Shown here: positions 38,252-54,743 of the stretch, piece by piece
Layout: each line of letters starts with the position of its first letter
How positions within the stretch are numbered: position 1 is the first letter of the stretch
Assembly (NCBI GenBank): GCA_963746845.1
Contig: CAVVCZ010000004.1
Coordinates: 448,001-512,000, forward strand
Direction of reading: 5' to 3'
From: an uncultured Chloroflexia bacterium
GTDB lineage: Bacteria > Chloroflexota > Limnocylindria > Limnocylindrales > CSP1-4
Length of the DNA stretch: 64,000 nt
Notes under the pieces: generated by a model
Database searches by the model: none
Told to the model about the DNA's origin: nothing
The model's input: only the letters and a program-made list of their open reading frames with translations
Made by a program: the position numbers and the translations under genes

Positions 38252-39301
38252 TCAGCCGGTGGGGCCCGGTCCGGTGGAGCCGCGCACCTCGAGATGAACG
38301 GGCAGCACGAGCCGGGGAGCGGGCGCGGCGTCGGCGCTCGATCCGTTCCCGGTCGCGACGCCGGCCAGCCGTTCGGTGAGCGTCGCGACCGCCCATCGGC
38401 CCATCTCCGCGGTCTCCTGCCGGATCGTCGTCAGGGCCGGCTCGGCGTAGGCCGCGAAGGCGACGTCGTCGAAGCCCACGATGCTGAGGTCGTCCGGGAC
38501 GTGCAGGCCGTGCCGCCGGATCGCCCGGAGCGCCCCGATCGCCATCAGGTCGTTGTACGCGATGACCGCCGTGGGACGGCTCCGCCCGCCCGCGGACAGG
38601 ATCTCGTCCATCGCGACCTCGCCGCCGGGGACCGTCGGCGCCCCGCTCCCGATCATCGGACCGGCGGCGCGCGGGTCGACGCCCGCCGCCTCGAGCTCGT
38701 CCCGGACGCCCGCCAGCCGCTCCGGTGCGTCCAGGTTCCGGGGCGGGGGCATCAGGTAGCCGAACCGGCGATGTCCGAGGTCGAGCAGGTGGCGCGCGGC
38801 GGCTCGACCACCCGCGTGGTTGTCGGAGGCAACCGAGGGGAGATCGACGTTCGAGGCGTTGGTGTTGACGAGGACGACCGGCAGCGGCGCGCTCGCCAGC
38901 CACTCGCGCTGGCGCATGCCGATCGTGCTCGCCGCGATGATCAACCCGTCGACCCGCCGCTCCACGAGGATGTCGAGGTAGGAGGCCTCGCGCTCCGGAT
39001 CCTCGTCGGCATTGCACAGCAGGATCGCGTAGCCCTCGGCGTTCGCGGCGTCCTCCACGGCGCGGACGAGCTGCGGGAAGTACGGGTTCTCGATGTCGGT
39101 GACGATCAGGCCGAGCGTCAGCGTCGCCCGCCGCTTCAGCGAGCGAGCGACGAGGGACGGCCGGAAGTCGAGCTCCCGGGCGGCGACGAGGACACGCTCG
39201 CGCGTCTCCGGCCGTGCCCGGCCCACCCCCGACAGCACGCGACTGACGGTCGCCGTCGAGACGCCCGCCTGGCGGGCAACGTCGGCGATCGTCGTGGCCA
39301 T
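38252..39301 (-). CDS. LacI-family regulator of the inositol cluster
   Basis: TIADVARQAGVSTATVSRVL, NDLMAIG, SIVGFDD and PALTTIRQ motifs. Last gene of the iolD operon. Confidence 0.93.
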   Translation of the reverse strand: MATTIADVARQAGVSTATVSRVLSGVGRARPETRERVLVAARELDFRPSLVARSLKRRATLTLGLIVTDIENPYFPQLVRAVEDAANAEGYAILLCNADEDPEREASYLDILVERRVDGLIIAASTIGMRQREWLASAPLPVVLVNTNASNVDLPSVASDNHAGGRAAARHLLDLGHRRFGYLMPPPRNLDAPERLAGVRDELEAAGVDPRAAGPMIGSGAPTVPGGEVAMDEILSAGGRSRPTAVIAYNDLMAIGALRAIRRHGLHVPDDLSIVGFDDVAFAAYAEPALTTIRQETAEMGRWAVATLTERLAGVATGNGSSADAAPAPRLVLPVHLEVRGSTGPGPTG

Positions 39302-39309
39302 CGAAGGCC

Positions 39310-40230
39310 TCAGGGGTGCCCGGTCTCGTCGACGATGGGCACGGTATCGGGATCCGTCCCGATCGGGACGGCCGGGATGTCCTCGCCGGCGGCCTCGCGC
39401 TGGGCGAGCACCTTCAGGTCCGCCTGGAGCTCCTCGAGCTCGGAGCCGCCGCCCATCAGGGCATGGAGCTGCTCCGCGTTGAGCTCGCCCCGGCGGTAGG
39501 TGCCGCCCGATCGGCCGCGGGTGAGGATCGTGAACGAATCGCCGATCGGCAGCGCGTGCTGGACGTTGTGGGTGATGAAGATCACGCCGAGGCCCTTGTT
39601 CCGGGCCGCGATCGCGTGGCGCAGGACGATCGCCGATTCCTTGACCCCGAGCGCCGACGTGGGCTCGTCGAGGATCAGGACGCGGGCGCCGAAGTACTCC
39701 GCCCGGGCGATCGCCAGCGTCTGACGCTCGCCGCCGGACAGCGTCCCGACGAGCTGCTCGGTGTCGCGGACGTCGATCCCGATGTTGTGCATCTCCTCGC
39801 GCGCGATCGTCGCCGCCTTGGCGGCATCGAACCGGCGGAGCGGACCCCAGCCGATCGTCGGCTCGTTGCCGAGGAAGAAGTTCCGGCTGATGCTCATCAA
39901 CGGCATGACCGACAGGTCCTGGTAGACCGTCGCGATCCCCGCGTCGAGCGCGTCGCGCGGCGAGCTGAACGTCACCGGGTTGCCGTCGACGGCGAGCGTC
40001 CCGTCGTCGGGCGGATGGACGCCCGAGAGCGTCTTGATCAGGGTCGACTTGCCCGCGCCGTTGTCCCCGAGCAGGCAGGTGACCTGGCCCGAGCGGACCT
40101 CGATCGACACGCCCTCCAGGGCGACGACCGCCCCGAAGTACTTCGAGATGTTGCGGGCCTCGAGGAGGGGCGGATCCTGGGATCCGCCGGGATCGGGGGT
40201 ACCGGCCGGTGCGGCCGAGGTCATCGTCAT
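39310..40230 (-). CDS. Sugar (inositol) ABC transporter ATP-binding protein
   Basis: [30 protein letters not shown] and ITHN motifs. AAGGAGG RBS. Confidence 0.92.
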
Positions 40231-40241
40231 CACGGGCCTCC

Positions 40242-41321
40242 TTACCGCAGCCCGGCGAACCGGCGCCGGATGAAGTTGTTGAGCACGACCGCCGTGAGGA
40301 GCAGGGTCCCCGTGGCGATCTTGTTCCAGTCGGCGTTGATGCTCGCGAACACGATCCCGATCTGGGCCATGCCGAGCGCCAGCGCGCCCAGCGCCGTGCC
40401 GACGACCGAGCCGTACCCGCCGGTCAGCAGACAGCCGCCGATGACGGCCGTCGTGATGGCCGTCAGCTCGAGGCCGCCACCGCGCAGGATGTCGGCCGAG
40501 CTGAACCGCATCGACTGGATCGCGGCGAGGATCGAGGCGGACAGTGCGGTGAGCGCGAACAGGGTGATCTTCACCCGCGCCACCGGGACCCCGAGGTTGC
40601 GGGCCGCGGCCGGTGAGCCGCCGACGCCGGCGATCCAGTTGCCGAACTTGCGGCGGCCGAGGATGTAGGCGCCGATGGCCGCGATGACGACCCACCACAC
40701 GATCGACACCTGGAAGTCGACCGTCTGCCCGTCGATCACGAACGAGTACTTCCAGTTGAAGAGGCCGGCGAGCGGGTCGGCCGCGATCCGGGCCGGGTCG
40801 ATCGGGATGTAGGTGATGTTCGTCACGATCGAGGTCATGACCGACGACAGGCCGGCGATGATGAACAGCGTGGCCAGCGTGACGATGAACGACGGGAGGC
40901 CGGTCCGGACCACGATGAACCCGTTGACCGCGCCGAGGGCGGTGGCGGCGGCCATCGCGATCAGGATCGACAGCCAGATCGGGAGCCCCCAGATCGTCGA
41001 GCAGATCCCGATGAGGATCCCGGCGAAGCCGACCATCGAGCCGACCGACAGGTCGAACTCGCCGGCGATCATCAGGAGCGCGACGGCCGTTCCCACGACG
41101 CCGGCCTGGGCCGCGACGTCGAGGTAGCCGAGCGTGCCCTGGATGCTGTAGAAGGCGTTCGTCCCGCGGGCGACCGAGAGAACGAGGAACACCAGCCAGA
41201 CGAACACGACGATGACGAGCGCGCCGGCGGCCGGTCGCGCCAGGAGCCGTTGGGCGAGGGAGACGCGGCGGAGTCGCTCGGGGGCGGGTGCAGGGCCGGC
41301 GTCGGCGGTGGTGGTCGCCAT
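40242..41321 (-). CDS. Sugar (inositol) ABC transporter permease
   Basis: [27 protein letters not shown] and [13 protein letters not shown] motifs. Confidence 0.92.
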
Positions 41322-41413: not shown

Positions 41414-42421
41414 TCAGCGCAGCCCCTTCGCCGCGAGGGCGATGACGTTGGCCGCGTTGTCCTTGGTGACGAAGCCCGGGCCGGTCATGATCAGGCCGGT
41501 CCCGTCGCCCGTCGGCAGGTTCCCCGTCTCTGCGTAGTTCGTGAGGATCACGATCGGCAGATAGCCCTGGAGGAACTGCTGCTGGTCGATGGCGAAGTCC
41601 ATCTTGCCGTCCTTGATCGCCGTCAGGACGTCGGCGCTCAGGTCGAAGGTCGCGAGATGGATCTGCTTGCCGGACGCCGCGACGGCCGCGAGGGCTGGCC
41701 CCGCCACCGACGGTCCCAGGGTCAGGATCCCGTCGATCGTCGGATCGGCCTGGATCGCGGCAGCGATCGCGGCCTGCATGCCGGCCGGATCGGAGATCTT
41801 GCCGGTCAGGATCTTGTCCTTGCCGTCGATGCCGAGCGCCTGGAAGAAGCCGTTGCAGCGCAGGGTCAGCGCCTGGTTGCCGACCTCCTGGTTGAAGCAA
41901 CGCGGGTTCTTCACGCCCGCGTCCTTGAACCGCTGTCCGGCGCCGATTCCCGCCTGGAGCTCGGTCTGCCCGACGTGGGCGAGGATCCCGAGGCTCTTGA
42001 ACACGTCGGAGCCCGAGTTCATCGAGACGACGGGGATGCCGGCCGCCACGGCCTTCTTGATCGACGGGCTCAGCGCGTCGGCGTTCGGGATCGAGACGAC
42101 GAGGCCGGTCGGCTTCTTCGCGACGGCCGCGTCGATCAGGGCGGACATGCCGGGCATGTCGCTTTCCGCGCCCGGTGCGCTGTAGTTCGCGGTGACACCC
42201 ATGTCGGCCGCGCCGGCCTTGACGCCGTTGCGGACGACGCCCCAGAACCCGTCCTGGGCCTGGCCGTGGGTCACGATCTCGATCTTGATGTCGCCGCGCT
42301 TCACGAGCGCGCCGTCGGGTCCCTTCGCCGTGCCACCGCCGGACGGCGAGGCCGTCGCGTTGCAGGCGGACAGGACGATGGCGAAGCCCGCGACCAGTCC
42401 GAGCACCTTGCGTGTGTGCAT
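41414..42421 (-). CDS. Sugar (inositol) ABC transporter substrate-binding lipoprotein
   Basis: Lipobox [34 protein letters not shown] and [10 protein letters not shown] motifs. Confidence 0.9.
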
Positions 42422-42570
42422 GCCGTTCGCTCCTCCATGGAATTGACCTTGGGCGGTCGATCGGTCCACGACCGATCACTCCGCGATCTCCGTCCTCCTT
42501 GTCACTGCGTCCGGATCGTCCATCGACCCGTCGACGCCGGCACCTCCTTTCACCGACCGGAACCGGTCGA

Positions 42571-43572
42571 TCAGCTGTCCGGGATCTCCTCGACACGCAC
42601 CGGTCGGTGCTCGTGGAGCGAACGGGTGGCGGCCTCCGCGATCCGGATGGCCTGGACGCCGTCGCGCGCCGTGCACGGGCTCGGCAGCTCGCCGCGGGCC
42701 ACGCGCACGAACGTCGCGAGCTCCTCGGCGTAGGCGTCCCCGAACCGGTCCATGAACTGGGCCCACGGCGGACCCGCGGGCGGCGGGACGCCCGGCTCGA
42801 CGGAGCGCATCGGGGTCCGCGGGCCGAGGCCGACGCTGACCGAGTCGCCCGAGCCGAACAGCTCCGCGCGGATGTCGTAGCCGAGCGGGTCATGGCGCGC
42901 CGACGTCAGGACGCCGAGCACGCCGTCGTCCATGCGGAGCGTCGCGACGCCGGTGTCGACGTCGCCGTACTTGGCGAACACGGGGAAGCCACGGACGCCG
43001 CCGTCGGCGTAGACCTCGACGACCTCGTGGCCGGTCAGCCACCGGATGACGTCGAAGTCGTGGATGCTGAAATCCCGGAACAGGCCGCCGGACTGTGGGA
43101 TGTACGACTCGTGGGGCGGCGCGGGATCGTGGCCGGCGAGGCGGTAGGCGTAGAGCGTCCCGAGCGCACCGGTCTCGACGAGCCGGCGGGCCTCGCGGTA
43201 GCCGGCGTCGAAACGGCGCTGGAACCCGAGCTGGAACCGGATCCCCGCGTCCTCGACCGTTCGGGCGACCGCGATGGAGGCCGCGACGTCGAGCGCCAGC
43301 GGCTTCTCGCAGAACGTCGGGAGCCCGCGTCGCGCCGACATCGTGATCAGTGCTGCATGGGCGGACGTCGCGGCCGCGATGACGACAGCGTCCGCCCCGT
43401 CCAGGGCCGCGTCGACGCTCGGAGCCGCGGTCGCACCGACGGTCGCGGCCGCATCCGCTGCGGAGCTCGGCACCTCGTCCGCGATGATCAGGGCATCCAC
43501 GCCGCGCGTCTTCGACAACAGCCCCGCGTGGAACCGACCGATCCGGCCCGCGCCGATCAGGGCGATCTTCAT
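42571..43572 (-). CDS. iolG: Inositol 2-dehydrogenase (Gfo/Idh/MocA family)
   Basis: IGAGRIG, FCEKP, GFQRRFD, SGGLFRD..IHDFD and GYDIRAE motifs, in iol gene context. Confidence 0.85.
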   Translation of the reverse strand: MKIALIGAGRIGRFHAGLLSKTRGVDALIIADEVPSSAADAAATVGATAAPSVDAALDGADAVVIAAATSAHAALITMSARRGLPTFCEKPLALDVAASIAVARTVEDAGIRFQLGFQRRFDAGYREARRLVETGALGTLYAYRLAGHDPAPPHESYIPQSGGLFRDFSIHDFDVIRWLTGHEVVEVYADGGVRGFPVFAKYGDVDTGVATLRMDDGVLGVLTSARHDPLGYDIRAELFGSGDSVSVGLGPRTPMRSVEPGVPPPAGPPWAQFMDRFGDAYAEELATFVRVARGELPSPCTARDGVQAIRIAEAATRSLHEHRPVRVEEIPDS

Positions 43573-44582
43573 GCGATGTGCCCCGCGTCATCCGCGACGG
43601 ACCCGGGGCGACCGGAGACGCGTCGCAGCGCCGCGCCGAGCACCCGCCGGCCGATCGCCGCGCTCTCCGCCGGTGGCGGCCAGCCGCTGTCCTGCTCGAC
43701 CATCAGCCAGCCGTCGTAGGACCGCTCGGCCAGGACGCCGAGGATCCCGTCCAGGTCGAGGAGGCCCGCGCCGAGCTCCGTGAAGAGGCGTGCCCGGATC
43801 CCCGCCGCGAACCCCGCCACCCGGCCGCTCCGCAGCCCGGCGAGGACCTCCGGATCGACGTCCTTCAGATGGACGTGCTCGACGCGCGGGCCGTACCGGC
43901 GGAGGGCCGCCACCGGATCTCCGCCGCCGACGATGTAGTGCCCGACGTCGAGGCAGAACGGCAGGACGTCGGCCGCGATGGAGCCCGCCAGGCGATCCAC
44001 CTCCTCGGGGGTCTCGACGTACGTCCCGGCGTGGGGATGGAACGCGAGCCGCGCCCCGGCGCGGCGCGTCTCGTCGGAGATCGCCGCGAGGAGATCCACG
44101 GTCCGCGCCCAGCCGTCGTCGGTCAGCCGCGGGGCGGCCGCGTCACGGGCGTGACCGGCGAACGGGTCCCGCTCGGGGCTGCCGTCGAACGCGATGCACA
44201 GCACCTCGCCGCCGCCGTCGACCAGCAGCCGGATGCGCTCGCGGACCCCCTCGAGCGAGCCCGCGACCGGACCGGCGGGAGTGGCTCCGAACCACGCATA
44301 GACCTCCGCGAGGCGGAGGCCGCGGGCCGCGAGGATCCCGCGCAGCGCGTCGCCCTCCGGGAACCCGAGGCCGAGCTGGGTCCCGTCGTAGCCGGTCCGG
44401 GCGATGTCGTCGAGGACGACCTCCGCGGTGGCGTTCAGGCGGAGCTCGGGCACGTCCACGTTGTTCCAGAGGATCGGGACCGTGCCGATCGGGGCGTGGG
44501 CGAGCGGCCCAGCCACGGCGAGTCGTCGGCGCAGCCGCTCGGCCTGCTCGACGAGGGCGGGCGGTGGCGAGGCGACGGTCAT
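43569..44582 (-). CDS. iolE: Myo-inosose-2 dehydratase-like TIM-barrel protein
   Basis: PILWNNVD, G...G.GFP, FHPHAGTYVET..E, CLDVGH, HVHLKD, FTELG.G and WLMVEQD motifs. Coupled to iolD and iolG. Confidence 0.82.
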   Translation of the reverse strand: MTVASPPPALVEQAERLRRRLAVAGPLAHAPIGTVPILWNNVDVPELRLNATAEVVLDDIARTGYDGTQLGLGFPEGDALRGILAARGLRLAEVYAWFGATPAGPVAGSLEGVRERIRLLVDGGGEVLCIAFDGSPERDPFAGHARDAAAPRLTDDGWARTVDLLAAISDETRRAGARLAFHPHAGTYVETPEEVDRLAGSIAADVLPFCLDVGHYIVGGGDPVAALRRYGPRVEHVHLKDVDPEVLAGLRSGRVAGFAAGIRARLFTELGAGLLDLDGILGVLAERSYDGWLMVEQDSGWPPPAESAAIGRRVLGAALRRVSGRPGSVADDAGHIA

Positions 44583-46399
44583 CGGTGCTGTTCCTCCGCG
44601 CGGCCCTCGAGCCAGCGCGCATGCTGCTCCGGGTGGTTCGGCGGGCTCGGGGCGTCCCACCAGCCGGTCTTGTCCGGACCGGCCCGCTCCAGATCACGAT
44701 CGACCTTCACGTGGACGAGGGAGGGCCCTCCGGACGCGAGCGCCCGTCCCACCGCCGGCCCGACCTCGTCGGGATGGGCCGCGGTCTCGCTGTGCAGGCC
44801 GAACGCCGCCCCGATCGCCCGGAAGTCGGGGGAGTAGACCGAGCCGTCCGGGGTCAGGAAGTCGGTCCAGGCCGTCCGGCCGAAGAAGCTCTGCTGGCCG
44901 CCCTTGATGCTGATCCAGCCGGAGTTGTCGAGGACGACCGTGCAGACCGGGGCGCCGGCGAGAACGGCGGCCTGGAGCTCCTGCATCGTCTGGAGGAAGT
45001 CCCCGTCGCCGCAGACCGCGAGGACCTGTCGCTCGGGCTTCGCGAGCTGGGCGCCGATCGCGGCCGGCAGCGTGAACCCCATCGTCGAGAACCCGCCGGA
45101 CGTGAGGTGGGTCCGCGGCTGGCGGGTGACCCAGCGCTGTTTGACCATGCCCTGCGGGAGGCCGGCCCCGGTCACGACGATCGCGTCATCGCGCGTCGCG
45201 CCCTGGACCTCGCGGACCGCGCGGGCCATTGACATCGGCACCGCGTCCGATCCGGACTTGCCCTCGACCAGCTCGTACCACTCGCCCTTGAGCCGCTGGA
45301 TCTCGTCGTAGTACGGCGTGTCGCGGTAGACGTCCGGACCGCCGCCCGGACCGAGGGCCGTCAGCAGGTCCAGGAGGGCCGCCTTCGCGTCGCCGACCAG
45401 GGCCACGTCGACCGGGTAGTTCTTGCCGATCTCGCGCGGGTCGATGTCCACCTGGATCAGGCGCGACGGCGGGATCGCGAACGTCACGCCCTTGCGGTAC
45501 GAGGAGGCCGACCAGTCGGTGAAGCGGTTGCCGACCGAGACGACGACGTCCGCCGATGCCGCCAGCCGGTTGCCGCAGGTCGAGGCCGTGTCGCCGATCG
45601 TCTGGGCGGACAGCTCATGAGTCTCGTCGATCGCGCCCTTGCCGTTCCAGGTCGTGACGACCGGGGCGCCGAGCCGCTCGGCCAGCGCGACCACCTCGTC
45701 CCACGCCTCGGCGAGGATCGCCCCGCCGCCCGCGACGATGACCGGGCGGGCCGCCTCGCGGAGGCGGGCCGCGGCGCGCTCGACGTCGTCGGACGCCGGC
45801 CGGACCCGGCCCCGCGCCCGGCGCGACGAGGGCACCGGCAGCTGGACGTCGGCGGCCTCCGCCTGGACGTCCATCGGCAGGTCGAGCAGGACCGGGCCGG
45901 GCCGTCCGCTCGTCATGGCGTTCCAGGCGCGGTGGAGGACGAAGGGCAGGTCGTCGACGCGGGACGGCTGCCACCACTCCTTCACGAGCGGCTCGAACAC
46001 GCGCGGGTTGTCGGCGTGGTGGCGGCGCTCCAGCTCCTGGAACAGCCCGTGGCCGCGCATGTACGTGTGGGGCGAGCCCGTCGCGAGGGCGACGGCCGTC
46101 GAATCGACGTACGCCGTGCCCATCCCGATCACCGTGTTCATCGCGCCGGGCCCGATGCTCGTGAACGCGAGGATCGGCTGGCCCGTGGCGCGATACCAGC
46201 CGTCGGCGAGGTGCACGGCCGATTGCTCGTGCATGACCTGGACGGTCCGGATCGCGTCGCGTCGATCGAGGAGGGCGTCGGTGATCGCCCAGGAGCCGTG
46301 ACCCGGGATCCCGGCGACGAGCGGCACGCCCTCGTTGACGAGGTGCTCGACGAGGATCTGGGCGCCGGTCAGCCGGGTCCGCGTCGTGGGATCGCTCAA
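44579..46399 (-). CDS. iolD: Thiamine-diphosphate-dependent trihydroxycyclohexane-dione acylhydrolase (IolD-like)
   Basis: GIPGHG, HEQSAVH.AD, TSIGPGA.N, GFSTMGF and GDGDF..LDNSGW.SI motifs. TTG start; iol context. Confidence 0.8.
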   Translation of the reverse strand: MSDPTTRTRLTGAQILVEHLVNEGVPLVAGIPGHGSWAITDALLDRRDAIRTVQVMHEQSAVHLADGWYRATGQPILAFTSIGPGAMNTVIGMGTAYVDSTAVALATGSPHTYMRGHGLFQELERRHHADNPRVFEPLVKEWWQPSRVDDLPFVLHRAWNAMTSGRPGPVLLDLPMDVQAEAADVQLPVPSSRRARGRVRPASDDVERAAARLREAARPVIVAGGGAILAEAWDEVVALAERLGAPVVTTWNGKGAIDETHELSAQTIGDTASTCGNRLAASADVVVSVGNRFTDWSASSYRKGVTFAIPPSRLIQVDIDPREIGKNYPVDVALVGDAKAALLDLLTALGPGGGPDVYRDTPYYDEIQRLKGEWYELVEGKSGSDAVPMSMARAVREVQGATRDDAIVVTGAGLPQGMVKQRWVTRQPRTHLTSGGFSTMGFTLPAAIGAQLAKPERQVLAVCGDGDFLQTMQELQAAVLAGAPVCTVVLDNSGWISIKGGQQSFFGRTAWTDFLTPDGSVYSPDFRAIGAAFGLHSETAAHPDEVGPAVGRALASGGPSLVHVKVDRDLERAGPDKTGWWDAPSPPNHPEQHARWLEGRAEEQHR

Positions 46400-46419: not shown

Positions 46420-46433
46420 TGTAATCGTTTACA
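46420..46433. promoter_or_regulatory. LacI-type operator TGTAATCGTTTACA
   Basis: Near-perfect 14-bp AT-rich palindrome with central CG, between the iolD promoter and start codon. Confidence 0.72.
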
Positions 46434-46638: not shown

Positions 46639-48192
46639 ATGACGCAGGTGGCCGAGCCGGGGCGCGCCCGGGCCGAGACGCAGGGAGGCCCGACCCTCGG
46701 GGCCGTCCATCACTGGATCGGCGGGGCGATCGTGGAGGGCACGTCCGGGCGTCGCGGTCCGGTCTACGACCCGGCGACAGGCCGGATCGCCCGTGAGGTC
46801 GACTTCGCGACCGTCGACGAGGTCGGAGCGGCGGTCGCCGCCGCCAGGGCCGCCTTCCCGGCGTGGCGGGCCACGTCGCTGTCGAAGCGGACCGAGATCC
46901 TGTTCCGCATCCGCAATCTCGTCGAGACCCATCGGCGCGAGCTCGCTGCGCACCTGACCGCGGAGCACGGCAAGGTGCCGTCCGACGCGCTCGGCGAGAT
47001 CGCCCGCGGCCTCGAGAACCTCGAGTTCGCCTGCGGGATCCCGAATCTCTTGAAGGGCGGCTTCACGGAGCAGGCCTCGACCGGCGTCGACGTCTTCCAG
47101 ATCCGCCAGCCGCTCGGCGTCGTCGCCGGAATCACGCCGTTCAACTTCCCGGCGATGGTCCCGATGTGGATGTTCGGCAACGCGATCGCCTGCGGCAACA
47201 CGTTCGTCCTGAAGCCGTCCGAGAAGGACCCGTCCGCATCGATGTTCCTCGCCGAGCTCCTCCACGAGGCCGGCGTCCCGGATGGCGTGTTCAACGTCGT
47301 CCACGGCGACAAGGTCGCGGTCGACGCGATCCTCGAGCACCCGGACATCTCGGCGGTGTCGTTCGTCGGCTCGACCCCGATCGCCCGGTACATCTACGAG
47401 ACCGGCACGAAGAACGGGAAGCGGGTCCAGGCCCTCGGCGGGGCGAAGAACCACATGATCGTCCTGCCGGACGCCGACATCGACATGGCCGCCGATGCCG
47501 CGGTCTCCGCGGGCTACGGCTCGGCGGGCGAGCGCTGCATGGCGATCGCGACGGTCGTCGCGGTGGGCGCGGTCGCCGACCCGCTGGTCGACGCGATCAA
47601 GGCCCGGCTCCCGAAGATCAAGGTGGGTCCGGGGAGCGATCCCGAGGCCGAGATGGGCCCGCTGGTCACGCGCCAGCACCGCGACAAGGTCGCGTCCTAC
47701 CTCGAGTCGGGCCCCGCCCAGGGTGCCACGCTCGTCGCCGACGGCCGCGACCACCCGCTGTACGACGAGTCCGAGGGCGGCTTCTTCCTCGGTGTCTCGC
47801 TGATCGACCACGTGACGACGGACATGGACGCGTACCGCGACGAGATCTTCGGCCCGGTGCTGACGGTCGTTCGCGTCGACACCTATGAGGAGGCCGTCCA
47901 CCTCGTCAACGACAACCCGTACGGGAACGGCACCGCGATCTTCACGCGGGATGGCGGTGCCGCCCGCCAGTTCCAGTTCGAGGCCAACGCGGGGATGGTC
48001 GGGATCAACGTCCCGATCCCGGTTCCGGTCGCCTACTACAGCTTCGGCGGCTGGAAGCACTCGCTCTTCGGCGACCTGCACATGTACGGCCCCGAGGGGA
48101 TCCAGTTCTACACGCGGGCGAAGATCGTGACCCAGCGCTGGCCGGACCCGGGGACCTCGAAGATCGACCTCGGGTTCCCGCGGACGCGCTGA
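46639..48192 (+). CDS. iolA: CoA-acylating (methyl)malonate-semialdehyde dehydrogenase
   Basis: ITPFNFPAMVPMW, LKPSEKDP, SFVGSTP, GGAKNH, GSAGERCMA and GINVPIPVP motifs. Confidence 0.93.
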   Translation: MTQVAEPGRARAETQGGPTLGAVHHWIGGAIVEGTSGRRGPVYDPATGRIAREVDFATVDEVGAAVAAARAAFPAWRATSLSKRTEILFRIRNLVETHRRELAAHLTAEHGKVPSDALGEIARGLENLEFACGIPNLLKGGFTEQASTGVDVFQIRQPLGVVAGITPFNFPAMVPMWMFGNAIACGNTFVLKPSEKDPSASMFLAELLHEAGVPDGVFNVVHGDKVAVDAILEHPDISAVSFVGSTPIARYIYETGTKNGKRVQALGGAKNHMIVLPDADIDMAADAAVSAGYGSAGERCMAIATVVAVGAVADPLVDAIKARLPKIKVGPGSDPEAEMGPLVTRQHRDKVASYLESGPAQGATLVADGRDHPLYDESEGGFFLGVSLIDHVTTDMDAYRDEIFGPVLTVVRVDTYEEAVHLVNDNPYGNGTAIFTRDGGAARQFQFEANAGMVGINVPIPVPVAYYSFGGWKHSLFGDLHMYGPEGIQFYTRAKIVTQRWPDPGTSKIDLGFPRTR

Positions 48193-48315
48193 TGGTCGAC
48201 TCGCTCGCCGGGCGCAACGGCGACGACCTCATCGTCAGCCTCGACTTGATCGAGATCAACGAGGCATTCGCCGCGCGTGGCGATGGCCATCGAGCGGGTC
48301 GGGGCGGCCGCGTGA
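48192..48315 (+). pseudogene. Collapsed remnant of an acetyl-CoA acetyltransferase (thiolase) gene
   Basis: ATG overlaps the iolA stop. It reads MVDSLAGRNGDDLIVS joined to LDLIEINEAFAA (thiolase NEAF motif), then in a shifted frame VAMAIERVGAAA-stop (thiolase-like C-terminus). Confidence 0.7.
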
Positions 48316-48328
48316 TGGGACCCGGCCG

Positions 48329-49444
48329 ATGACCCTCACCCGGATGCCCGCGCCACCGCTCGCCGACACGCCGCTCGGGCGGACGATCGCGACCACCCCC
48401 ACCGACATCTGGAACGATTCGTGCGCGATCGACGAACTCACCTACGCGATCTCGTTCGGGGCGGTCGGCGCGACCGCCAATCCGACGATCGTCACCGACG
48501 TCTGGAAGGCGGAGCCGACGCGCTGGCGCGACCGCGTGCGGCAGCTCACGGCCGAGCGGCGGGACGCGAGCGAGGTCGACCTCGCCTGGACCATCGTCGA
48601 CGAGATGTCCGTGCGGGCGGCGCCGCTGCTGACCCCGGCCTTCGAGGCCACCGAAGGGCGCCAGGGCCGCCTGTCCACGCAGACCGACCCGACCAACCAT
48701 CGGTCGCCCGAGCGGATGCTCGCCCAGGGGCTGCATTTCACCGGGCTCGCACCGAACATCATCGTCAAGTTCCCGGCGACCGCCGCGGGCCTCGTGGCGA
48801 TGGAAGAGGCGACCGCCAACGGCGTGAGCGTCAACACGACGGTCTGCTTCTCGGTCGCCCAGGCGGTCGCAGCGGCCGAGGCGATCGACCGGGGTCTCCG
48901 GCGGCGCGAGGCGGCCGGGGAGTCGACCGCATCCATGGGCCCGGTCGTCACGATCATGATGGGAAGGATCGAGGACTGGCTCCGGATCCAGACGGAGCGA
49001 GACGGCATCGTCGCCGACCCGACGGCCGTCCCGTGGTCCGGCGTCGCGGTGTTCAAGCGCGCCTACGGGATCTTCCGCGAGCGCGGGTTCCGTGCCCGGC
49101 TCCTCGGGGCGGCGATCCGGCACCACCTGCACTGGTCGGAGCTGATCGGCGGCGACGTCGTCATCACGATGCCCGCCGCCTGGCAGCGCCGGTTCAATGC
49201 GTCCACGATCGAGGTCCGGCCCCGGATGGACGATCCGGTCGACGCCGGGATCGTGGAGGGGCTTGCCGCCCACTACCCGGATTTCGTCCGCGCGTATGAG
49301 CCGGACGGGCTGACCGTCGCGGAGTTCGATTCCTTCCCACCCACGGCACGGACGCTCCGGGCGTTCATCGCCTCGTACCACGAGCTCCTCCACCAGGTGA
49401 CCGACGCGATGATCCCGAACCCCGACCTTCGCCCCGGGTCCTGA
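48329..49444 (+). CDS. Transaldolase-family protein (non-canonical active-site residues)
   Basis: WNDS, GATANPTI, GRLSTQ, NIIVKFPAT (Schiff-base Lys), NTTVCFS.AQA and MMGRIEDW motifs. Confidence 0.85.
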   Translation: MTLTRMPAPPLADTPLGRTIATTPTDIWNDSCAIDELTYAISFGAVGATANPTIVTDVWKAEPTRWRDRVRQLTAERRDASEVDLAWTIVDEMSVRAAPLLTPAFEATEGRQGRLSTQTDPTNHRSPERMLAQGLHFTGLAPNIIVKFPATAAGLVAMEEATANGVSVNTTVCFSVAQAVAAAEAIDRGLRRREAAGESTASMGPVVTIMMGRIEDWLRIQTERDGIVADPTAVPWSGVAVFKRAYGIFRERGFRARLLGAAIRHHLHWSELIGGDVVITMPAAWQRRFNASTIEVRPRMDDPVDAGIVEGLAAHYPDFVRAYEPDGLTVAEFDSFPPTARTLRAFIASYHELLHQVTDAMIPNPDLRPGS

Positions 49445-49447
49445 GCC

Positions 49448-50374
49448 GTGGCCGAGCCCGAGATTCCGGCCCGCGCTCTGCCGAGCGACCTCCCATCCGA
49501 CGACCTCCTCCTGCGTCCCGACGCCTCCGGCGAGGTCGCGTTCGACGCCGAACGGGCCGGCTGGCGGTATCTGTCGCTCGAGGTGCGAGTCGTGCCGGCC
49601 GGCGGCCTCCGCATCGCCGGTTCGCCGGGTCAGGAGACGTGCGTCGTCGTCCAGTCCGGCCACGACGTCTCGCTGGCCGATCCCGACGGCGGGCGGTGGG
49701 CGCTCCCGGGGCGCGAGACCGTGTTCTCGGATCTCCCGTCCGCGCTGTGGCTGCCCGACGGCCGCGAGCTGACGGTGACCGAGGGCCGCCCGTCGGAGCG
49801 GCCGGCGACGATCGTCGTCGCGCGTGCGCCGCGATCCGGCCGCGACGGGGTCGCCGCGGAGCCGATCCCGATCGCGCCGGCCGACGTCGCGGTCGAGACC
49901 CGCGGCGCCGGCAACGCGACGCGTCAGATCGCGCACATCGTCACGCCGTCGTTCCCGGCCGACCGCCTCGAGGTCGTCGAGGTCTACACGCCGTCGGGGA
50001 ACTGGTCGAGCTGGCCCCCGCACAAGCACGACATCGACGCGATGCCCGGCGAGGCGGTCCTCGAGGAGATCTACCACTACCGGTTCCGACGTCCTGCGGC
50101 GTGGGCCGTCCAGCGCGTCTACCGCGCCGACCGCTCGCGCGACGCGATCTTCGAGGTGCACGACGGCGACGTGGTGCTCGTCACCGACGGCTATCACCCG
50201 TTCGCGGCGGCGCACGGCGACGACGCCTACTACCTCAACGCCCTGGCCGGCGACCGGCGGACGATGGCCTGCTCGTTCGACCCGGATCTCGACTGGGTGC
50301 GCGAGACGTGGTCCGCGATGGCGACCGACCCGCGCGTGCCGCTCGTCCCGCCGGCGGCCGTCCCCGTCGCCTGA
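49448..50374 (+). CDS. iolB: 5-deoxy-glucuronate isomerase
   Basis: RGAGNATR, EVYTPSGNWSSWPPHKHD, LEEIYHY, GYHP and YYLNALAG motifs. Confidence 0.95.
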   Translation: MAEPEIPARALPSDLPSDDLLLRPDASGEVAFDAERAGWRYLSLEVRVVPAGGLRIAGSPGQETCVVVQSGHDVSLADPDGGRWALPGRETVFSDLPSALWLPDGRELTVTEGRPSERPATIVVARAPRSGRDGVAAEPIPIAPADVAVETRGAGNATRQIAHIVTPSFPADRLEVVEVYTPSGNWSSWPPHKHDIDAMPGEAVLEEIYHYRFRRPAAWAVQRVYRADRSRDAIFEVHDGDVVLVTDGYHPFAAAHGDDAYYLNALAGDRRTMACSFDPDLDWVRETWSAMATDPRVPLVPPAAVPVA

Positions 50375-51747
50375 GCCCGCCGCCGCAGGCGATCCACGCG
50401 GGCGGTCAGGCTCCGCTCCGTGAGCGGATCGCCCATGCCGAGCCGCCGCCGGGCCTCGGCCAGCGCGACCGCTCGCCGGGTCGCCTCGAGCGCACCGACC
50501 GGATCGGCCAGGCGGTGCTCGCGCAGCTTCGCGATCTCGATCCAGGCGTGGATGGCGACGGCCCCGCCCCGGCCCGTCAGCTCGTGCCACGCGCCGATGG
50601 CGTCGTCGTAGCGGCCCATCCGTCGGAGGAGCCGCGCCCGCTCGATCCCGACGCGCTCCGGTGTCCAGGGCGAGTCCAGGCGGCCCTCGACGGTCCGCGA
50701 CCACGACGCCGGTCGGCGGTGGCTGCCGATGTCCGCGACCCGGTGTGGATGCCACCATGGCCGGCGCGGGTCGTCGTCGCCGTCCGCCTCGACGGGCGCG
50801 TCTCCGCCGAACGGCGACAGCACGGGCTCCGGCGGGCGGCCCGGATCCAGCGCGGCGTCAAGGCACGCCAGGGCGTCCTCGAGCCGGCGGTCCCGGGCGA
50901 ACGCACGGGCGAGGCCGGCGAGGTCGCCGCGCGGCGCGGACGGGCGCACGCTCGCGTCGGCGTAGTCGATGTCGATCCGGCCGAGCAGCCGGGCGAGCGA
51001 GCGCACGTCCTCCCGGTTGTGGCGGACGACCTCCATCAAGGGCTCGGCGGGGGCGCCGCGGAGGAAGTCGAGGAACCGGCCCGGGATCTGCCAGCCCTCG
51101 ACGTCGCCGTGGCGGTGGGTGCCGAGCAGCTCCGTCTCGACCGTTCGGAGCCGTGCGTCGGTCATCCGGTGCCGGAACACCCGCCGCACGAACGGCAGCA
51201 GGTCCAGGTGGCCGGCGAGCGGCGGTGGTGCGGCCCGCGTCATCCGGTAGCGAGCGGTGAGCAGCGGCCAATCGAATCCCCGGCCGTTGTACGTCACGAG
51301 CCAGGCCTCGGGCGGCAGGTGGCGGGCCACGCGGGCGAGAAGCCCGGCCTCCGCGGGGTGGTCCGGCAGCAGCAGCTGGACCTGGCGGAACCGGTCGTCC
51401 TCCCACCACCCGAGCCCCACGAGGAACGCGACCGTGCCGGACGCCGTCGCGAGGCCGGTGGTCTCGGTGTCGAGGCAGACGAGCGGCACGTCCGGCGGCG
51501 GCAGGCCCGGGAGCCCGGCGAGCCGCTCGCGGTCCAACGGGAGGATCACGGTCGCGGGCTCGCATCGGACGACGGGACCGGCCGGGTCGAGCAGGAGCTC
51601 CCCGTCGACCGCCGCGGCCAGGCGCCGGCCGAGCTCGATCGAGCCGTGGCCGACCCCGCCATCGCCGCGATCGCCGGGCTCTCGTCCGGCCGCTGCGAGC
51701 GTCGCGCGGTAGTTCGCCAGCCGGCGTTCGAGCGTCGCCCCGCTCAT
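50230..51747 (-). CDS. RNase H-like (DnaQ/YprB-type) exonuclease with TPR-like C-terminus, MrfB-like
   Basis: LDTETTGL..GTVAFLVG, TYNGRGFDWP, HLDLL, HNREDV and EIAKLREH motifs. ATG overlaps the helicase stop. Confidence 0.85.
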   Translation of the reverse strand: MSGATLERRLANYRATLAAAGREPGDRGDGGVGHGSIELGRRLAAAVDGELLLDPAGPVVRCEPATVILPLDRERLAGLPGLPPPDVPLVCLDTETTGLATASGTVAFLVGLGWWEDDRFRQVQLLLPDHPAEAGLLARVARHLPPEAWLVTYNGRGFDWPLLTARYRMTRAAPPPLAGHLDLLPFVRRVFRHRMTDARLRTVETELLGTHRHGDVEGWQIPGRFLDFLRGAPAEPLMEVVRHNREDVRSLARLLGRIDIDYADASVRPSAPRGDLAGLARAFARDRRLEDALACLDAALDPGRPPEPVLSPFGGDAPVEADGDDDPRRPWWHPHRVADIGSHRRPASWSRTVEGRLDSPWTPERVGIERARLLRRMGRYDDAIGAWHELTGRGGAVAIHAWIEIAKLREHRLADPVGALEATRRAVALAEARRRLGMGDPLTERSLTARVDRLRRRAQATGTAAGGTSGTRGSVAIADHVSRTQSRSGSNEQAIVRRSPARALR

Positions 51748-54071
51748 CGGGCCGCCGCGACCGCGGCCTCCGGCTCGGCGAGGGTGTCGGTGCGCGGTCG
51801 GAGCTGGTCGAGCAGACGGAGCGCCAGGGCCCGCGCATCGACGTCCGGCTCCAGGCGCGGACCCGTGCACGCGGGACAGCCGCTCTCGCAGTCACAGCCG
51901 CGGATGAGGTCGGCGGCCGCCGAGATGAGCTCGTCGTGGCGATCCCACAGCCGCGGGCTCAGCCCGATCCCGCCCGGCACCGCCTCGTACAGGTAGATCG
52001 TCGGCGCCTCGTGGTGGGGCGACCGGACCTGGGTCACGAGCCCGAGGTCCCGCGGGTCGACCATCAGGAGCACCGCGGCGACCGTCTGGATCGCCCGCCC
52101 GGCGCCCATGAGCGCGATGTCCAGCTCGTTCCGCCGCCAGCCGCCGGCCGCGCCCTCGGCGGTGAGCCAGTAGGCGGTTGTCTGGAGCTCCAGCTCGGGC
52201 AGGTCGATCGGGCCCCAGCCGACGTTCTCGTCCGTCCCGAACTTCAGCTTCTTGAAGAGGGTCACGAGGCTGGCGACCATCACCTCACCGTGGACCCGCC
52301 GGCCGCCCGGCGCCTGCGCCTCGCCGAACACGTCGAGCGGCTTCAGGGTCACCGCCCGGTTGGCGTACGTGTAGTGGTCGGCGTCGATCCGGTGGACGTA
52401 GGCCTTGCGCTCGCCCCACTCGAGCCGGTCCACGTAGTACTGGACCGACTCGTGCATGTAGATCGCCCGCTCGTGGACGAGGACCTGGGCCGAGAACAGG
52501 TCGACCTCGCCGAGGACCCGCGGCCGGTCCGGCGTCGTGTCGATGATCACGACGTTCTCCGGGGCCGCGCTCCGGAGCGACACCTCCGACGCGGGGAAGT
52601 TCTCGGAGCTCCAGTACCAGCGCCCGTCGTCCGCTTGGCGGACGTGCCCGGACTCTGCGACGAATGCGAGCAGCTCATCCGCGGCAGCGGGACCGAAGAC
52701 CTCGCCCGGCTCGAACGGCAGCTCGAACGTCGCGCAGCGGAGGTGGGCGATCAGGACGTGGAGGTTGTCCGGGTCCAGCCGGGCCTCCTCGGATCGGCCG
52801 TCCAGCAGGAACTCCGGGTGGTGGACGACGTACCGGTCGACCGGTGCTCCGGACGACACGAGGATCGCGACGCTTGTCGCCCCGCGCCGGCCGGCCCGGC
52901 CGATCTGCTGCCACGTGGCCGCGACGGACCCCGGGTAGCCGGCGAGGATCGACACGTCCAGGCGGCCGATGTCCACGCCGAGCTCGAGCGCGTTCGTCGC
53001 GACGACCCCGAGGATCTCGCCGTCGCGAAGCCCGCGCTCGATCGAGCGCCGCTCGAGCGGGAGATAGCCGCCGCGGTAGCCGCGGACGCGCGAGCGCGGA
53101 CCGAGGTCCTGACGCAGCGCCTCGCGGAGCGTCGACAGCATGATCTCGACGGCCGTGCGGCTCCGTCCGAACACGACCGTCTGGCGGCCCGCCCGGAGGA
53201 ACGGGATCGCCCAGCGATGGGCGACCGTCATCGACGACCCGCGTGCCCCGGTCGCGCGATCCGTGAGCGGCGGCTCCACGAGCAGGACGTGCCGCTCGCC
53301 GCTCGGAGCGCCGTTGCGGTCGACGAGCATCGGCGTCCGGCCGGTCAGCGTCGAGGCGAGCTCGGCCGGGTTCGCGATCGTCGCGGAGCAGCACACGATC
53401 ACCGGCCGGCTGCCGTAGTGGGCGCACAGCCGCAGGAGGCGCCGGATCACGTTGGCCACGTGGCTCCCGAACACCCCACGGTAGGTGTGGAGCTCGTCGA
53501 TGACGATGACCCGGAGCTGCTCGAACAGCTGGAACCACTTCGTGTGATGGGGGAGGATCGCCGAGTGGAGCATGTCCGGGTTCGTCACGACGACTTGCCC
53601 GGCGCCGCGGATCGCCGAGCGGATCGGGGCCGGCGTGTCCCCGTCGTACGTGGCGGCCGAGACGGTCAGGCCGGCGGCCCGCGACAGCTCGCCGAGCTCG
53701 GCGACCTGGTCCTGGCCCAGCGCCTTCGTCGGGAAGAGGAACAACGCGCGGGCGGCCGGGTCGTCGGCGATCGACTGCAGGACCGGCAGCGCGTAGCACA
53801 GCGTCTTGCCGGACGCGGTCGGGGTGACGACGACGACGTCGTTCCCGGCCCGAACGGCCTCGATCGCCTCCGCCTGGTGCGTGTACAGCCGTTCGATCCC
53901 GCGACTCGCGAGGCCGGTCCGGATCCCCGGATCGAGCCAGTCCGGGAAGTCCCGCCACGACGCGACTCTCGCCGGCAGGACGGCGTGATGGGTCACGCCA
54001 TCGGCCATCGACGGGTCCTCGAGCAACCGATCGAGGACGACGTCCGTCGCGGCCGGCGCATAGGTTCGCAT
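51744..54071 (-). CDS. DEAD/DEAH-box helicase with C-terminal DUF1998 zinc domain (MrfA/YprA/SftH/Hrq1 family)
   Basis: LYTHQ, TPTASGKT, PTKAL.QDQ, YDGDT, DELHTYRG.FGSH, SAT, TNALELG.DIG, QQIGRAGR and CDCESGCPAC motifs. ATG at 54071. Confidence 0.92.
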   Translation of the reverse strand: MRTYAPAATDVVLDRLLEDPSMADGVTHHAVLPARVASWRDFPDWLDPGIRTGLASRGIERLYTHQAEAIEAVRAGNDVVVVTPTASGKTLCYALPVLQSIADDPAARALFLFPTKALGQDQVAELGELSRAAGLTVSAATYDGDTPAPIRSAIRGAGQVVVTNPDMLHSAILPHHTKWFQLFEQLRVIVIDELHTYRGVFGSHVANVIRRLLRLCAHYGSRPVIVCCSATIANPAELASTLTGRTPMLVDRNGAPSGERHVLLVEPPLTDRATGARGSSMTVAHRWAIPFLRAGRQTVVFGRSRTAVEIMLSTLREALRQDLGPRSRVRGYRGGYLPLERRSIERGLRDGEILGVVATNALELGVDIGRLDVSILAGYPGSVAATWQQIGRAGRRGATSVAILVSSGAPVDRYVVHHPEFLLDGRSEEARLDPDNLHVLIAHLRCATFELPFEPGEVFGPAAADELLAFVAESGHVRQADDGRWYWSSENFPASEVSLRSAAPENVVIIDTTPDRPRVLGEVDLFSAQVLVHERAIYMHESVQYYVDRLEWGERKAYVHRIDADHYTYANRAVTLKPLDVFGEAQAPGGRRVHGEVMVASLVTLFKKLKFGTDENVGWGPIDLPELELQTTAYWLTAEGAAGGWRRNELDIALMGAGRAIQTVAAVLLMVDPRDLGLVTQVRSPHHEAPTIYLYEAVPGGIGLSPRLWDRHDELISAAADLIRGCDCESGCPACTGPRLEPDVDARALALRLLDQLRPRTDTLAEPEAAVAAAR

Positions 54072-54082
54072 GGGCGACCTCG

Positions 54083-54104
54083 AAATCGAACAGGCGTGCG
54101 ATTT
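54083..54104. promoter_or_regulatory. LexA-like SOS box
   Basis: AAATCGAAC-AGGC-GTGCGATTT: one mismatch from GAAC-N4-GTTC with extended palindromic arms, between TATGCT (-10) and the helicase RBS. Confidence 0.7.
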
Positions 54105-54136
54105 ACGGGAGCATAGCAGGAGGCTCCGCGACGCTT

Positions 54137-54155
54137 GTGACAGGTTGGCTGTCAC
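54137..54155. promoter_or_regulatory. GTGACA-N7-TGTCAC palindrome (copy 3)
   Basis: GTGACAggttggcTGTCAC. Its reverse complement GTGACAGCCAACCTGTCAC nearly matches copy 2. Confidence 0.62.
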
Positions 54156-54167
54156 GACGGCGTCGAG

Positions 54168-54743
54168 TTGACACGTCAGCTGCGGGCAGCTACGCTCCCC
54201 GGAACCGTGGACGACCCGAGCGCGCCCCAGCGCCCCTTGCGCCGCCGCCGCCCCGAGGCACCCGTCGAGGCCGACGAGATCGTGCCCGCCGGCGGGGCGA
54301 CGGACGACACCGACGAGACGCCGGCCGGCCGGGTCGACCTGACCGGCCTGTCGATCGCCGGGATCACTCGACGCCGCGTGGGCTGGGTGTCGGCCGGCCT
54401 CGTCGCCGTCTGGATCGTCGTCCTGTTCGCCCGTCAGGTCGGCGACGCCCAGGCCGCCAGCACCCAGGCCGCCCAGCTCGCGACGGACAACGCCGCCCTG
54501 TCCGACGAGGTCGATGCCCTCCAGAAGGAGCTCGACCTGATCGTCGAGCCCCAGTACGTCGGCCTGGAGGCGCGCGCCCATCGCTTCGGCAGCCCGCGCG
54601 AGATCCCGTTCGCCCTGGATCCTTCGGTGGCGGCGCCCGTCGACGGCGCGCCCGGCTCGGCGTCGGTGCGTCTCGGAGCCACGACGGATCGCCAGACCCC
54701 GCTCGAGTCCTGGCTCTCGCTCCTGTTCGGCCCGTCCGGCTGA
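54168..54743 (+). CDS. Septum formation initiator (FtsB/DivIC-like) protein
   Basis: Single TM helix, a coiled coil (QLATDNAALSDEVDALQKEL) and PQYVGLEARAHRFGSPRE, resembling the FtsB E..AR..LG...PGE motif. The start is uncertain (TTG 54168 or GTG 54207). Confidence 0.68.
   Translation: MTRQLRAATLPGTVDDPSAPQRPLRRRRPEAPVEADEIVPAGGATDDTDETPAGRVDLTGLSIAGITRRRVGWVSAGLVAVWIVVLFARQVGDAQAASTQAAQLATDNAALSDEVDALQKELDLIVEPQYVGLEARAHRFGSPREIPFALDPSVAAPVDGAPGSASVRLGATTDRQTPLESWLSLLFGPSG

Follow-up and report, generated by a model that had tools for sequence, protein, structure and literature searches.

A divergent transaldolase-family gene in an inositol cluster of soil Chloroflexota: candidate for a kinase-free lower branch of inositol breakdown

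In soil and gut, inositol released from phytate and lipids ranks among the major carbon sources of plant origin, and its bacterial breakdown is a textbook pathway that serves as a marker in genome surveys. In its canonical form, as in Bacillus subtilis and Salmonella, the pathway runs through IolG, IolE, IolD, IolB, IolC, IolJ and IolA, in which the kinase IolC phosphorylates 5-dehydro-2-deoxy-D-gluconate (DKG) and the aldolase IolJ cleaves the resulting 6-phosphate. Here we analyse a stretch of 64,000 nucleotides (the window; contig CAVVCZ010000004.1) from a soil Chloroflexota, in which an inositol (iol) cluster at 38.2-50.4 kb carries a gene for a divergent TAL_FSA-family enzyme of 371 amino acids (48329..49444, plus strand), hereafter TAL. 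In outline, the upper part of the route and IolA agree with the canonical pathway, whereas the genome holds no recognisable IolC, IolJ or DUF2090 protein, the thiamine pyrophosphate (TPP) enzyme at the IolD position stays far below the family cut-off, and a TAL_FSA gene lies between those for IolA and IolB. On balance we lean towards TAL as the missing lower-pathway enzyme, which would cleave unphosphorylated DKG to malonate semialdehyde and hand the dihydroxyacetone unit to glyceraldehyde-3-phosphate (G3P).

A system of similar logic is known from the breakdown of sulfoquinovose. As far as the available text of PMC7491151 goes, the sulfofructose transaldolase (SftT or SF-TAL, structure 8bc3) is a TAL_FSA enzyme that takes the dihydroxyacetone unit of a fructose analogue, unphosphorylated and bearing an anionic tail, and hands it on to G3P or erythrose-4-phosphate; it replaces the kinase and the aldolase of a parallel pathway, and the C3 aldehyde that it releases is oxidised by a co-encoded dehydrogenase. 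The same division of labour is proposed here for the isomerase IolB, TAL and the dehydrogenase IolA; the anion would be a carboxylate instead of a sulfonate, and the released aldehyde would be malonate semialdehyde. SF-TAL is short (about 226 residues) and stands near the Thermoplasma-type Tal (available text of PMC7491151), whereas TAL belongs to the long type. TAL is not a member of the SftT group, as its match to 8bc3 is weak (E 3.6e-6, 29.9 bits, residues 118-184 only), yet it may work like SftT. A second point of comparison is FsaA of Escherichia coli, which, according to the accessible part of PMC13259622, resembles TAL in carrying a glutamine at the position of the transaldolase glutamate and in using an unphosphorylated dihydroxyacetone donor, as proposed for TAL; FSA is short (220 residues) and relies on Tyr131, where TAL has a methionine.

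Search for the kinase and the aldolase of the canonical route

The genes of the cluster were mapped by Pfam and NCBIfam scans, with the curated cut-offs of NCBIfam. TAL passes the family model PF00923 with 128.4 bits against a gathering score of 27. Upstream of it on the same strand lies the gene for IolA, a CoA-acylating (methyl)malonate-semialdehyde dehydrogenase (MMSDH; 46639..48192; TIGR01722, 730.3 bits against a cut-off of 448.5), and downstream that for IolB, the 5-deoxy-glucuronate isomerase (49448..50374, plus strand; TIGR04378, 237.6 against 205 bits). The TGA stop codon of TAL ends at 49444 and the GTG start codon of IolB is at 49448, leaving a spacer of 3 nucleotides. An earlier note, made from the sequence of the window, had described exactly this arrangement and had stated that the cluster contains neither iolC nor a class II aldolase gene; both observations are confirmed, as no PfkB/IolC or class II aldolase gene was found by the scans within 38.2-50.4 kb.

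The same picture emerges from the whole assembly, which comprises 3.56 Mb in 12 contigs. With the IolC model (cut-off 300 bits), three PfkB kinases scored 64-92 bits; the top match (92 bits) is ribokinase-like (265.7 bits against 299.65), the other two are fructokinase-like, and none of the three stands in an iol context. DUF2090 gave zero matches in the genome. The sole class II aldolase-like gene (PF01116, 51.2 bits; 470 residues, with no NCBIfam name) lies 60 kb before the window start and about 100 kb from the iol cluster. It is surrounded by unrelated genes, namely those for a membrane protein, an amino-acid permease and a choline-type kinase. Family scores alone do not separate class II aldolases from housekeeping Fba. 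These scans, which carry the claim of the earlier note from the cluster to the genome, strongly suggest that IolC and IolJ are absent. A distant iolC or iolJ under the same operator, a possibility that the note had also raised, found no support either. The near-palindromic LacI-type operator TGTAATCGTTTACA (46420..46433, no strand assigned) lies in the divergent promoter region, within the 240-bp gap between the two operons of the cluster; it is the sole match of the window at up to 3 mismatches, two matches occurred in 0 of 100 shuffles, and a simple pattern search with the symmetric form, run over the assembled genome with a tolerance of 2 mismatches, found no second copy.

In a rival reading an unrecognised kinase phosphorylates DKG, with TAL cleaving DKG-6-phosphate to dihydroxyacetone phosphate (DHAP) and malonate semialdehyde. 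One candidate, again one foreseen by the earlier note, is the PfkB-like gene at 37256-38248 beside the cluster, which is syntenic in 40 of the 80 loci of close relatives described below (set 1), and the three further PfkB kinases of the genome would widen the choice. Its match to PfkB is weak (38.6 bits, C-terminal part only, with no NCBIfam family), however, and the gene lies on the opposite strand, convergent with the LacI gene. Furthermore, 41 of the 44 genomes sampled from the window's family have it, with or without TAL, and none of the 50 genomes of a second family, where 19 carry TAL; several genomes have it hundreds of kb away from TAL. The gene thus tracks taxonomy and neither TAL nor the pathway, and on distribution and strand we rejected it as the missing kinase. 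The chemistry argues in the same direction, as TAL_FSA enzymes accept donors with a free C1 hydroxyl and are not known to accept those of the DHAP type, to which the 6-phosphate made by IolC belongs. Altogether we regard the kinase explanation as extremely improbable.

Family and active site of the enzyme

The family models place TAL outside the described transaldolases and FSA enzymes. Its scores stay far below the cut-offs of three transaldolase models (NF002881, 102.1 against 367 bits; TIGR00876, 75.9 against 233.75; TIGR00874, 44.2 against 396.2) and of the FSA model TIGR00875 (46.3 against 245.95), and its relatives from other phyla likewise remain below the transaldolase and FSA cut-offs. 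The closest solved sequences are the long transaldolases of Corynebacterium glutamicum (3r5e) and Neisseria gonorrhoeae (3clm/7bbx; E 3.6e-19), and E. coli FSA matches weakly by sequence. An AlphaFold model (pLDDT 95.1), which was used for fold and strand register only, matches the long transaldolases at a TM score of about 0.8. TAL shares with them the length class, the barrel and the conserved Schiff-base lysine, aspartate, asparagine and threonine; it differs from them in an identity of only 22-23%, in two active-site positions, in falling into a separate clade, and in a gene context that is catabolic, whereas theirs is that of the pentose-phosphate pathway.

The subfamily is large. A search of 1.84 billion cluster representatives found 329 clusters at E <=1e-30, and a search of 5.8 billion proteins gave 5208 matches at E <=0.001 among 8000 candidates scored, which carry, where they are named at all, only the name "transaldolase (family protein)". 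A tree of 76 proteins, built by a quick method, unites all 67 members of the TAL subfamily in one starred clade; the long housekeeping Tals found in these genomes, TalB and the short Tal/FSA proteins all fall outside it.

Conservation was read over 31 members of the subfamily. K147, which is nearly invariant, aligns with the Schiff-base lysine of TalB (K132), of FsaA (FSA K85) and of 3r5e; the alignments also show that D30, N51 and T171 are retained, and that R213 and R264 align with R181 and R228 of TalB. At the position of the transaldolase catalytic glutamate (TalB E96) TAL has Q118, again nearly invariant, which aligns with Gln59 of FSA, and at the position of TalB Phe178 and FSA Tyr131 it has M210, or Val206 under an alternative gapped alignment. 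The roles assigned here to the TalB residues, that of E96 as the catalytic glutamate included, fit the mutants named in PDB titles. In E. coli FSA, the glutamine Gln59 is accompanied by the proton shuttle Tyr131 (accessible part of PMC13259622). With Gln118 for glutamate and Met210 for phenylalanine or tyrosine, the site of TAL matches neither known catalytic set, and the subfamily has conserved C-terminal motifs of its own.

Judging from these comparisons we infer the following route. IolG, IolE and the divergent TPP enzyme would open the inositol ring and IolB would yield DKG, which, read from its keto end, is a 5-deoxy-fructuronate with a free CH2OH-CO end and the 3S,4R configuration of fructose; its carboxylate sits where fructose-6-phosphate (F6P) bears its phosphate arm, and it is a donor of the type that TAL_FSA enzymes take. 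K147 would form a Schiff base with the keto group of DKG, and cleavage of the C3-C4 bond would give malonate semialdehyde, which IolA would convert to acetyl-CoA, and enzyme-bound dihydroxyacetone. The latter would most likely be transferred to G3P, giving F6P as in the sulfofructose transaldolase pathway. We favour this transfer because the two retained arginines would suit anionic tails, namely the donor's carboxylate and the phosphate on the acceptor G3P. Neither the DKG kinase IolC nor a DKG-6-phosphate aldolase (IolJ/DUF2090) would be required. As the later splitting of F6P would still cost an ATP, the gain would lie in flexibility and not in energy.

An FSA-like course of the same reaction has to be weighed against this transfer. 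In that case the Schiff base on DKG would be hydrolysed and free dihydroxyacetone released, to be taken up by a dihydroxyacetone kinase. The nearly invariant Q118 points that way, since it aligns with the glutamine of E. coli FSA (accessible part of PMC13259622) and not with the transaldolase glutamate, and the genome has two genes with a Dak1 domain. These genes are distant from the cluster, however; the position of the FSA proton shuttle Tyr131 is taken by M210 (or a valine in the alternative alignment), the retention of both phosphate-site arginines is consistent with a phosphorylated acceptor, and by sequence and fold TAL comes closest to long transaldolases and not to FSA. We thus consider release unlikely, and prefer the transfer to G3P.

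TAL could, alternatively, be an ordinary transaldolase of the pentose-phosphate pathway that was placed in the iol operon to serve the flux of triose and hexose phosphates. Its PF00923 domain and Tal-like fold agree with this, and it may even replace the canonical short Tal, which also occurs in this genome (contig C6, about 402.3-403.0 kb, outside the window; locus L012) and is split there by a frameshift. The frameshift separates the TTNP motif from the remainder of the protein, and reflects an assembly error or else a real pseudogene. Against this alternative stand the possibility that the frameshift is such an error, the low scores on the transaldolase models, the change from glutamate to glutamine across the subfamily and the separate clade, and the presence of a canonical Tal in all five other carriers examined, which have IolB-TAL-IolD clusters. 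The canonical inositol pathway, moreover, gives DHAP and requires no Tal. By all these comparisons TAL would not be the housekeeping transaldolase, and the alternative is very improbable.

Some members of the subfamily deviate from the common form. One branch (P0150, P0186, P0207, P0218 and P0228) lacks both arginines that align with the phosphate site, and its motif reads TT(A/S)P where other members have T(A/S)NP; an uncharged substrate may be used by this branch. In the metagenomic protein P0135 (655 residues) an IolE-like AP_endonuc_2 barrel is joined to a TAL of the subfamily, and metagenomic P0124 combines TAL with part of an IolB domain, perhaps as a fusion; both may be real fusions or artefacts of gene calling. 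Apparent fusions of TAL to an upstream gene in loci L110, L113 and L131 were rejected, as their N-terminal parts hold no Pfam domain, which marks them as over-extended frames in GC-rich DNA.

Gene neighbourhoods and presence across lineages

Two sets of loci were compared in order to follow the context of TAL. Set 1 comprises the 80 closest of 227 relatives found, which are 70-89% identical and nearly all from Limnocylindrales; set 2 comprises 80 loci, retained out of at least 569 relatives that were found with an alignment of distant members, and its phylum labels are taken from record titles. In set 1, IolB is the direct same-strand neighbour of TAL in 65 of 80 loci, so that the arrangement is not due to chance, and core genes of the pathway (IolB, IolD-type, IolE) occur in the flanks of 78. 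The order is variable (TAL-IolB or IolB-TAL) and the pair is sometimes isolated. IolC, a LacD-like aldolase or a class II aldolase was found near TAL in 0 of 80.

Among the more distant loci of set 2, iol core genes flank TAL in 39 of 80, and in 28 of the 49 that have at least 3 kb on both sides. The genes adjacent to TAL are those for IolB (19 of 80), canonical IolD (14) and IolA (9); its commonest direct neighbours are thus the proposed maker of its substrate, the enzyme of the preceding step and the proposed user of its product. Linkage to iol genes was observed in Chloroflexota (21 of 37 loci), Actinomycetota (5/10), Acidobacteriota (6/8), Myxococcota (3/3) and Pseudomonadota (2/4), and in none of the loci from Planctomycetota (0/7), Spirochaetota (0/5), Bacillota (0/2) and Lentisphaerota (0/1). 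Typical of the clusters outside Limnocylindria is IolB-TAL-IolD-IolG-IolA-IolE, which is carried by an isolate, Levilinea saccharolytica KIBI-1. IolC was above its cut-off in none of five genomes from other lineages with IolB-TAL-IolD clusters, KIBI-1 included, the best match being 144.5 bits. The earlier note had asked whether the subfamily accompanies iolB, iolD and iolE and excludes iolC and iolJ; the first part holds in Limnocylindria and in five phyla, and for iolC the second holds as a tendency, with an exclusion that is not absolute (5 of 80 loci of set 2, see below).

Across the class, 151 genomes including the host were sampled (six of them, G087, G123, G067, G106, G091 and G112, unpublished), and presence was called at E <=1e-40 for TAL and at E <=1e-50 for IolC. 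TAL was found in 52 of 151 genomes; by family, leaving aside the host genome, it occurs in 32 of 44 genomes of the window's family f1, in 0 of 6 of f2, in 0 of 49 of the sister family f3, in 19 of 50 of the second family f4 and in 0 of 1 of f5. IolB was found in 84 genomes (27 of 44 in f1, 41 of 49 in f3 and 14 of 50 in f4), and IolC in 49, of which 35 exceed the cut-off (7 of 44 in f1, none over the cut-off; 41 of 49 in f3; 0 of 50 in f4). Among the 84 genomes with IolB, 30 have only TAL, 40 only IolC, 7 both and 7 neither; with a minimum of 250 bits for IolC, these numbers become 36, 40, 1 and 7. The sister family has a canonical IolB-IolD (925 bits)-IolC (385 bits)-IolE-IolG cluster. TAL and IolC thus form a clear either/or pattern and are largely complementary in the class, which is a strong trend and no rule.

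The neighbourhoods also bear on a further explanation, by which TAL acts on the ketose of another cyclitol or amino-cyclitol and DKG is handled by an unrecognised enzyme pair. Members of the subfamily stand also beside genes for short-chain and zinc dehydrogenases, aminotransferases, lactonases and IolE-like barrels, a true IolC coexists with TAL in a few loci of set 2, and genes for DegT-type and class III aminotransferases and GFO oxidoreductases follow TAL-IolB in many Limnocylindria loci. Against it, IolB adjoins TAL in both sets and IolA does so in set 2, as counted above, and the scans for IolC, DUF2090 and class II aldolases revealed no alternative consumer of DKG in the cluster or the genome. 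We hold this explanation to be improbable and retain DKG as the preferred substrate. Examples of the aminotransferase arrangement are L039 (11086-17122) and L044 (12285-17099), in each of which DegT-type and class III aminotransferase genes and two GFO oxidoreductase genes come after TAL-IolB; the arrangement hints at amino-inositol breakdown.

The proposed role of TAL as a bypass of kinase and aldolase is supported by comparative genomics, and all those checks suggested by the earlier note that are computational favoured it; several observations weigh against it. The genome is 92% complete, so that the loss of IolC is not fully certain. The active site has neither the transaldolase glutamate nor the FSA tyrosine. 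In 5 of the 80 loci of set 2 a true IolC (349-391 bits) or a bifunctional IolC-aldolase (954-958 bits) lies within 8 kb of TAL; some bacteria keep both routes. Among the loci of set 2 with flanks of 3 kb or more on either side, ten lack an iol-type neighbour. Nine of them were annotated together with two others, and in these TAL lies among genes for short-chain or zinc dehydrogenases, aminotransferases, lactonases or IolE-like barrels, or among unrelated genes. Such loci away from iol genes imply that the subfamily is not tied to one substrate and serves more than one pathway. In the class, the split between TAL and IolC is structured by lineage, with one family carrying IolC and two carrying TAL, so that the genomes are not independent observations. 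Furthermore, 15 of the 52 genomes with TAL have no IolB, and the congener G107 has a TAL locus devoid of IolB as well as a separate locus with IolD, an IolC-like gene and IolB. Finally, the TPP enzyme of the window is not a recognised IolD, and hence the exact intermediate that reaches IolB and TAL is itself an inferred one.

The second locus of G107 (L182) combines canonical IolD (891 bits) and IolB with an IolC-like kinase (260 bits), a DegT aminotransferase and a split transketolase. It also holds a GFO oxidoreductase, a LacI regulator, an IolE-like barrel and an EamA transporter, and may represent a kinase/transketolase or an amino-cyclitol variant of the pathway.

Upper pathway, surrounding genes and implications

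The iol cluster consists of two divergent operons in a window of 72% G+C, whose closest relatives are metagenome-assembled genomes of Limnocylindrales (Chloroflexota). The first gene of the minus-strand operon (44579..46399) encodes the divergent TPP enzyme at the IolD position, which is the highest-scoring IolD-like gene of the genome; no gene of the whole genome exceeds the IolD cut-off. With 295.4 bits against 715 on the IolD model TIGR04377 and 375.9 against 538 on that of acetolactate synthase, to which it bears a slightly greater resemblance, it is a divergent TPP enzyme and not a recognised IolD. It is presumed to be the ring-cleaving hydrolase, and may constitute a second non-orthologous swap in the inositol pathway. 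It belongs to a separate subfamily with about 31-34% identity to the canonical IolD of relatives; this subfamily adjoins TAL in 22 of the 80 loci of set 1 and stands in for canonical IolD in 29 of them. The earlier note had listed iolD, iolE, iolG, an ABC transporter, a LacI regulator, iolA and iolB for the cluster, and all these types are there, save that the label iolD does not stand for the gene just described.

The minus-strand operon continues with the gene for an IolE-like inosose dehydratase (43569..44660, minus strand; AP_endonuc_2; TIGR04379 as best family, 176.4 bits against a cut-off of 290), the frame of which runs into the TPP gene, so that translation probably begins further downstream than at the first start codon. 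An IolG-like inositol 2-dehydrogenase follows (42571..43572, minus strand; GFO_IDH_MocA domains; TIGR04380 as best family, 308.9 bits against 355). Next come, all on the minus strand, the components of a sugar ATP-binding cassette (ABC) transporter, namely a periplasmic sugar-binding protein (41414..42469; Peripla_BP_4, 132.7 bits), a permease (40242..41321; BPD_transp_2, 117.5 bits) and an ATPase at approximately 39310-40240, where ABC_tran covers residues 429-583 of a 697-residue open frame that extends beyond these coordinates and matches sugar-type NCBIfam families. The last gene of the operon encodes a LacI-family repressor (38252..39301, minus strand; Pfam LacI and Peripla_BP_3/1), a regulator that was found in 42 of the 80 loci of set 1.

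In the plus-strand operon, a relic of a deleted thiolase gene (48231..48278, plus strand) lies between the genes for IolA and TAL. It comprises 16 codons (..DLIEINEAFAA..), of which 12 are identical in residue to the thiolase of locus L015 (E 0.03 within the window), where an intact 1.2-kb gene with Thiolase_N and Thiolase_C occupies this place; some relatives, such as L015, thus couple the acetyl-CoA output of IolA to a thiolase. A scan of 46.3-50.7 kb found no promoters or terminators. After iolB, on the minus strand at 50230-54581, lie a gene of the RNase_H_2 superfamily and one for a DEAD-box helicase with the MrfA zinc-binding domain; the pair is syntenic in most related loci and resembles the MrfAB-type DNA repair pair, with no connection to inositol.

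The earlier note knew of no description of this variant of the pathway, and our search of the literature agrees: a full-text search, mostly outside subscription journals and supplements, returned no paper connecting a transaldolase with iol genes or with DKG. The available texts of PMC13311982, PMC9430895, PMC12482443 and PMC6741124 mention no TAL-type step, and those of PMC13311982 and PMC6741124 merely remark on a missing iolJ. In the survey of PMC9430895, as far as its available text goes, a cluster counts as functional if at least three of iolB, iolC, iolD and iolE occur together, a criterion by which clusters devoid of IolC, and here also of a recognisable IolD, can be missed.

Taken at its full breadth, our reading would make this large TAL_FSA subfamily an undescribed lower branch of inositol breakdown in at least five phyla. 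It would need no dedicated DKG kinase, with a single enzyme, of a catalytic set unlike that of transaldolase or FSA, replacing IolC and IolJ, half of the ring carbon going to F6P and half to acetyl-CoA, and relatives acting on other unphosphorylated ketoses from cyclitols and amino-cyclitols; we see the chances for and against this broad statement as evenly balanced. If it is true, the use of inositol would be under-counted in abundant uncultured soil groups, such as Limnocylindria, Anaerolineae, Acidobacteriota and Acidimicrobiia. TAL would also be the second natural case, after sulfoquinovose, of a transaldolase replacing a kinase and an aldolase, and it would offer to biocatalysis a new donor scope, that of a keto-uronic acid, together with the chemistry of an unusual active site.

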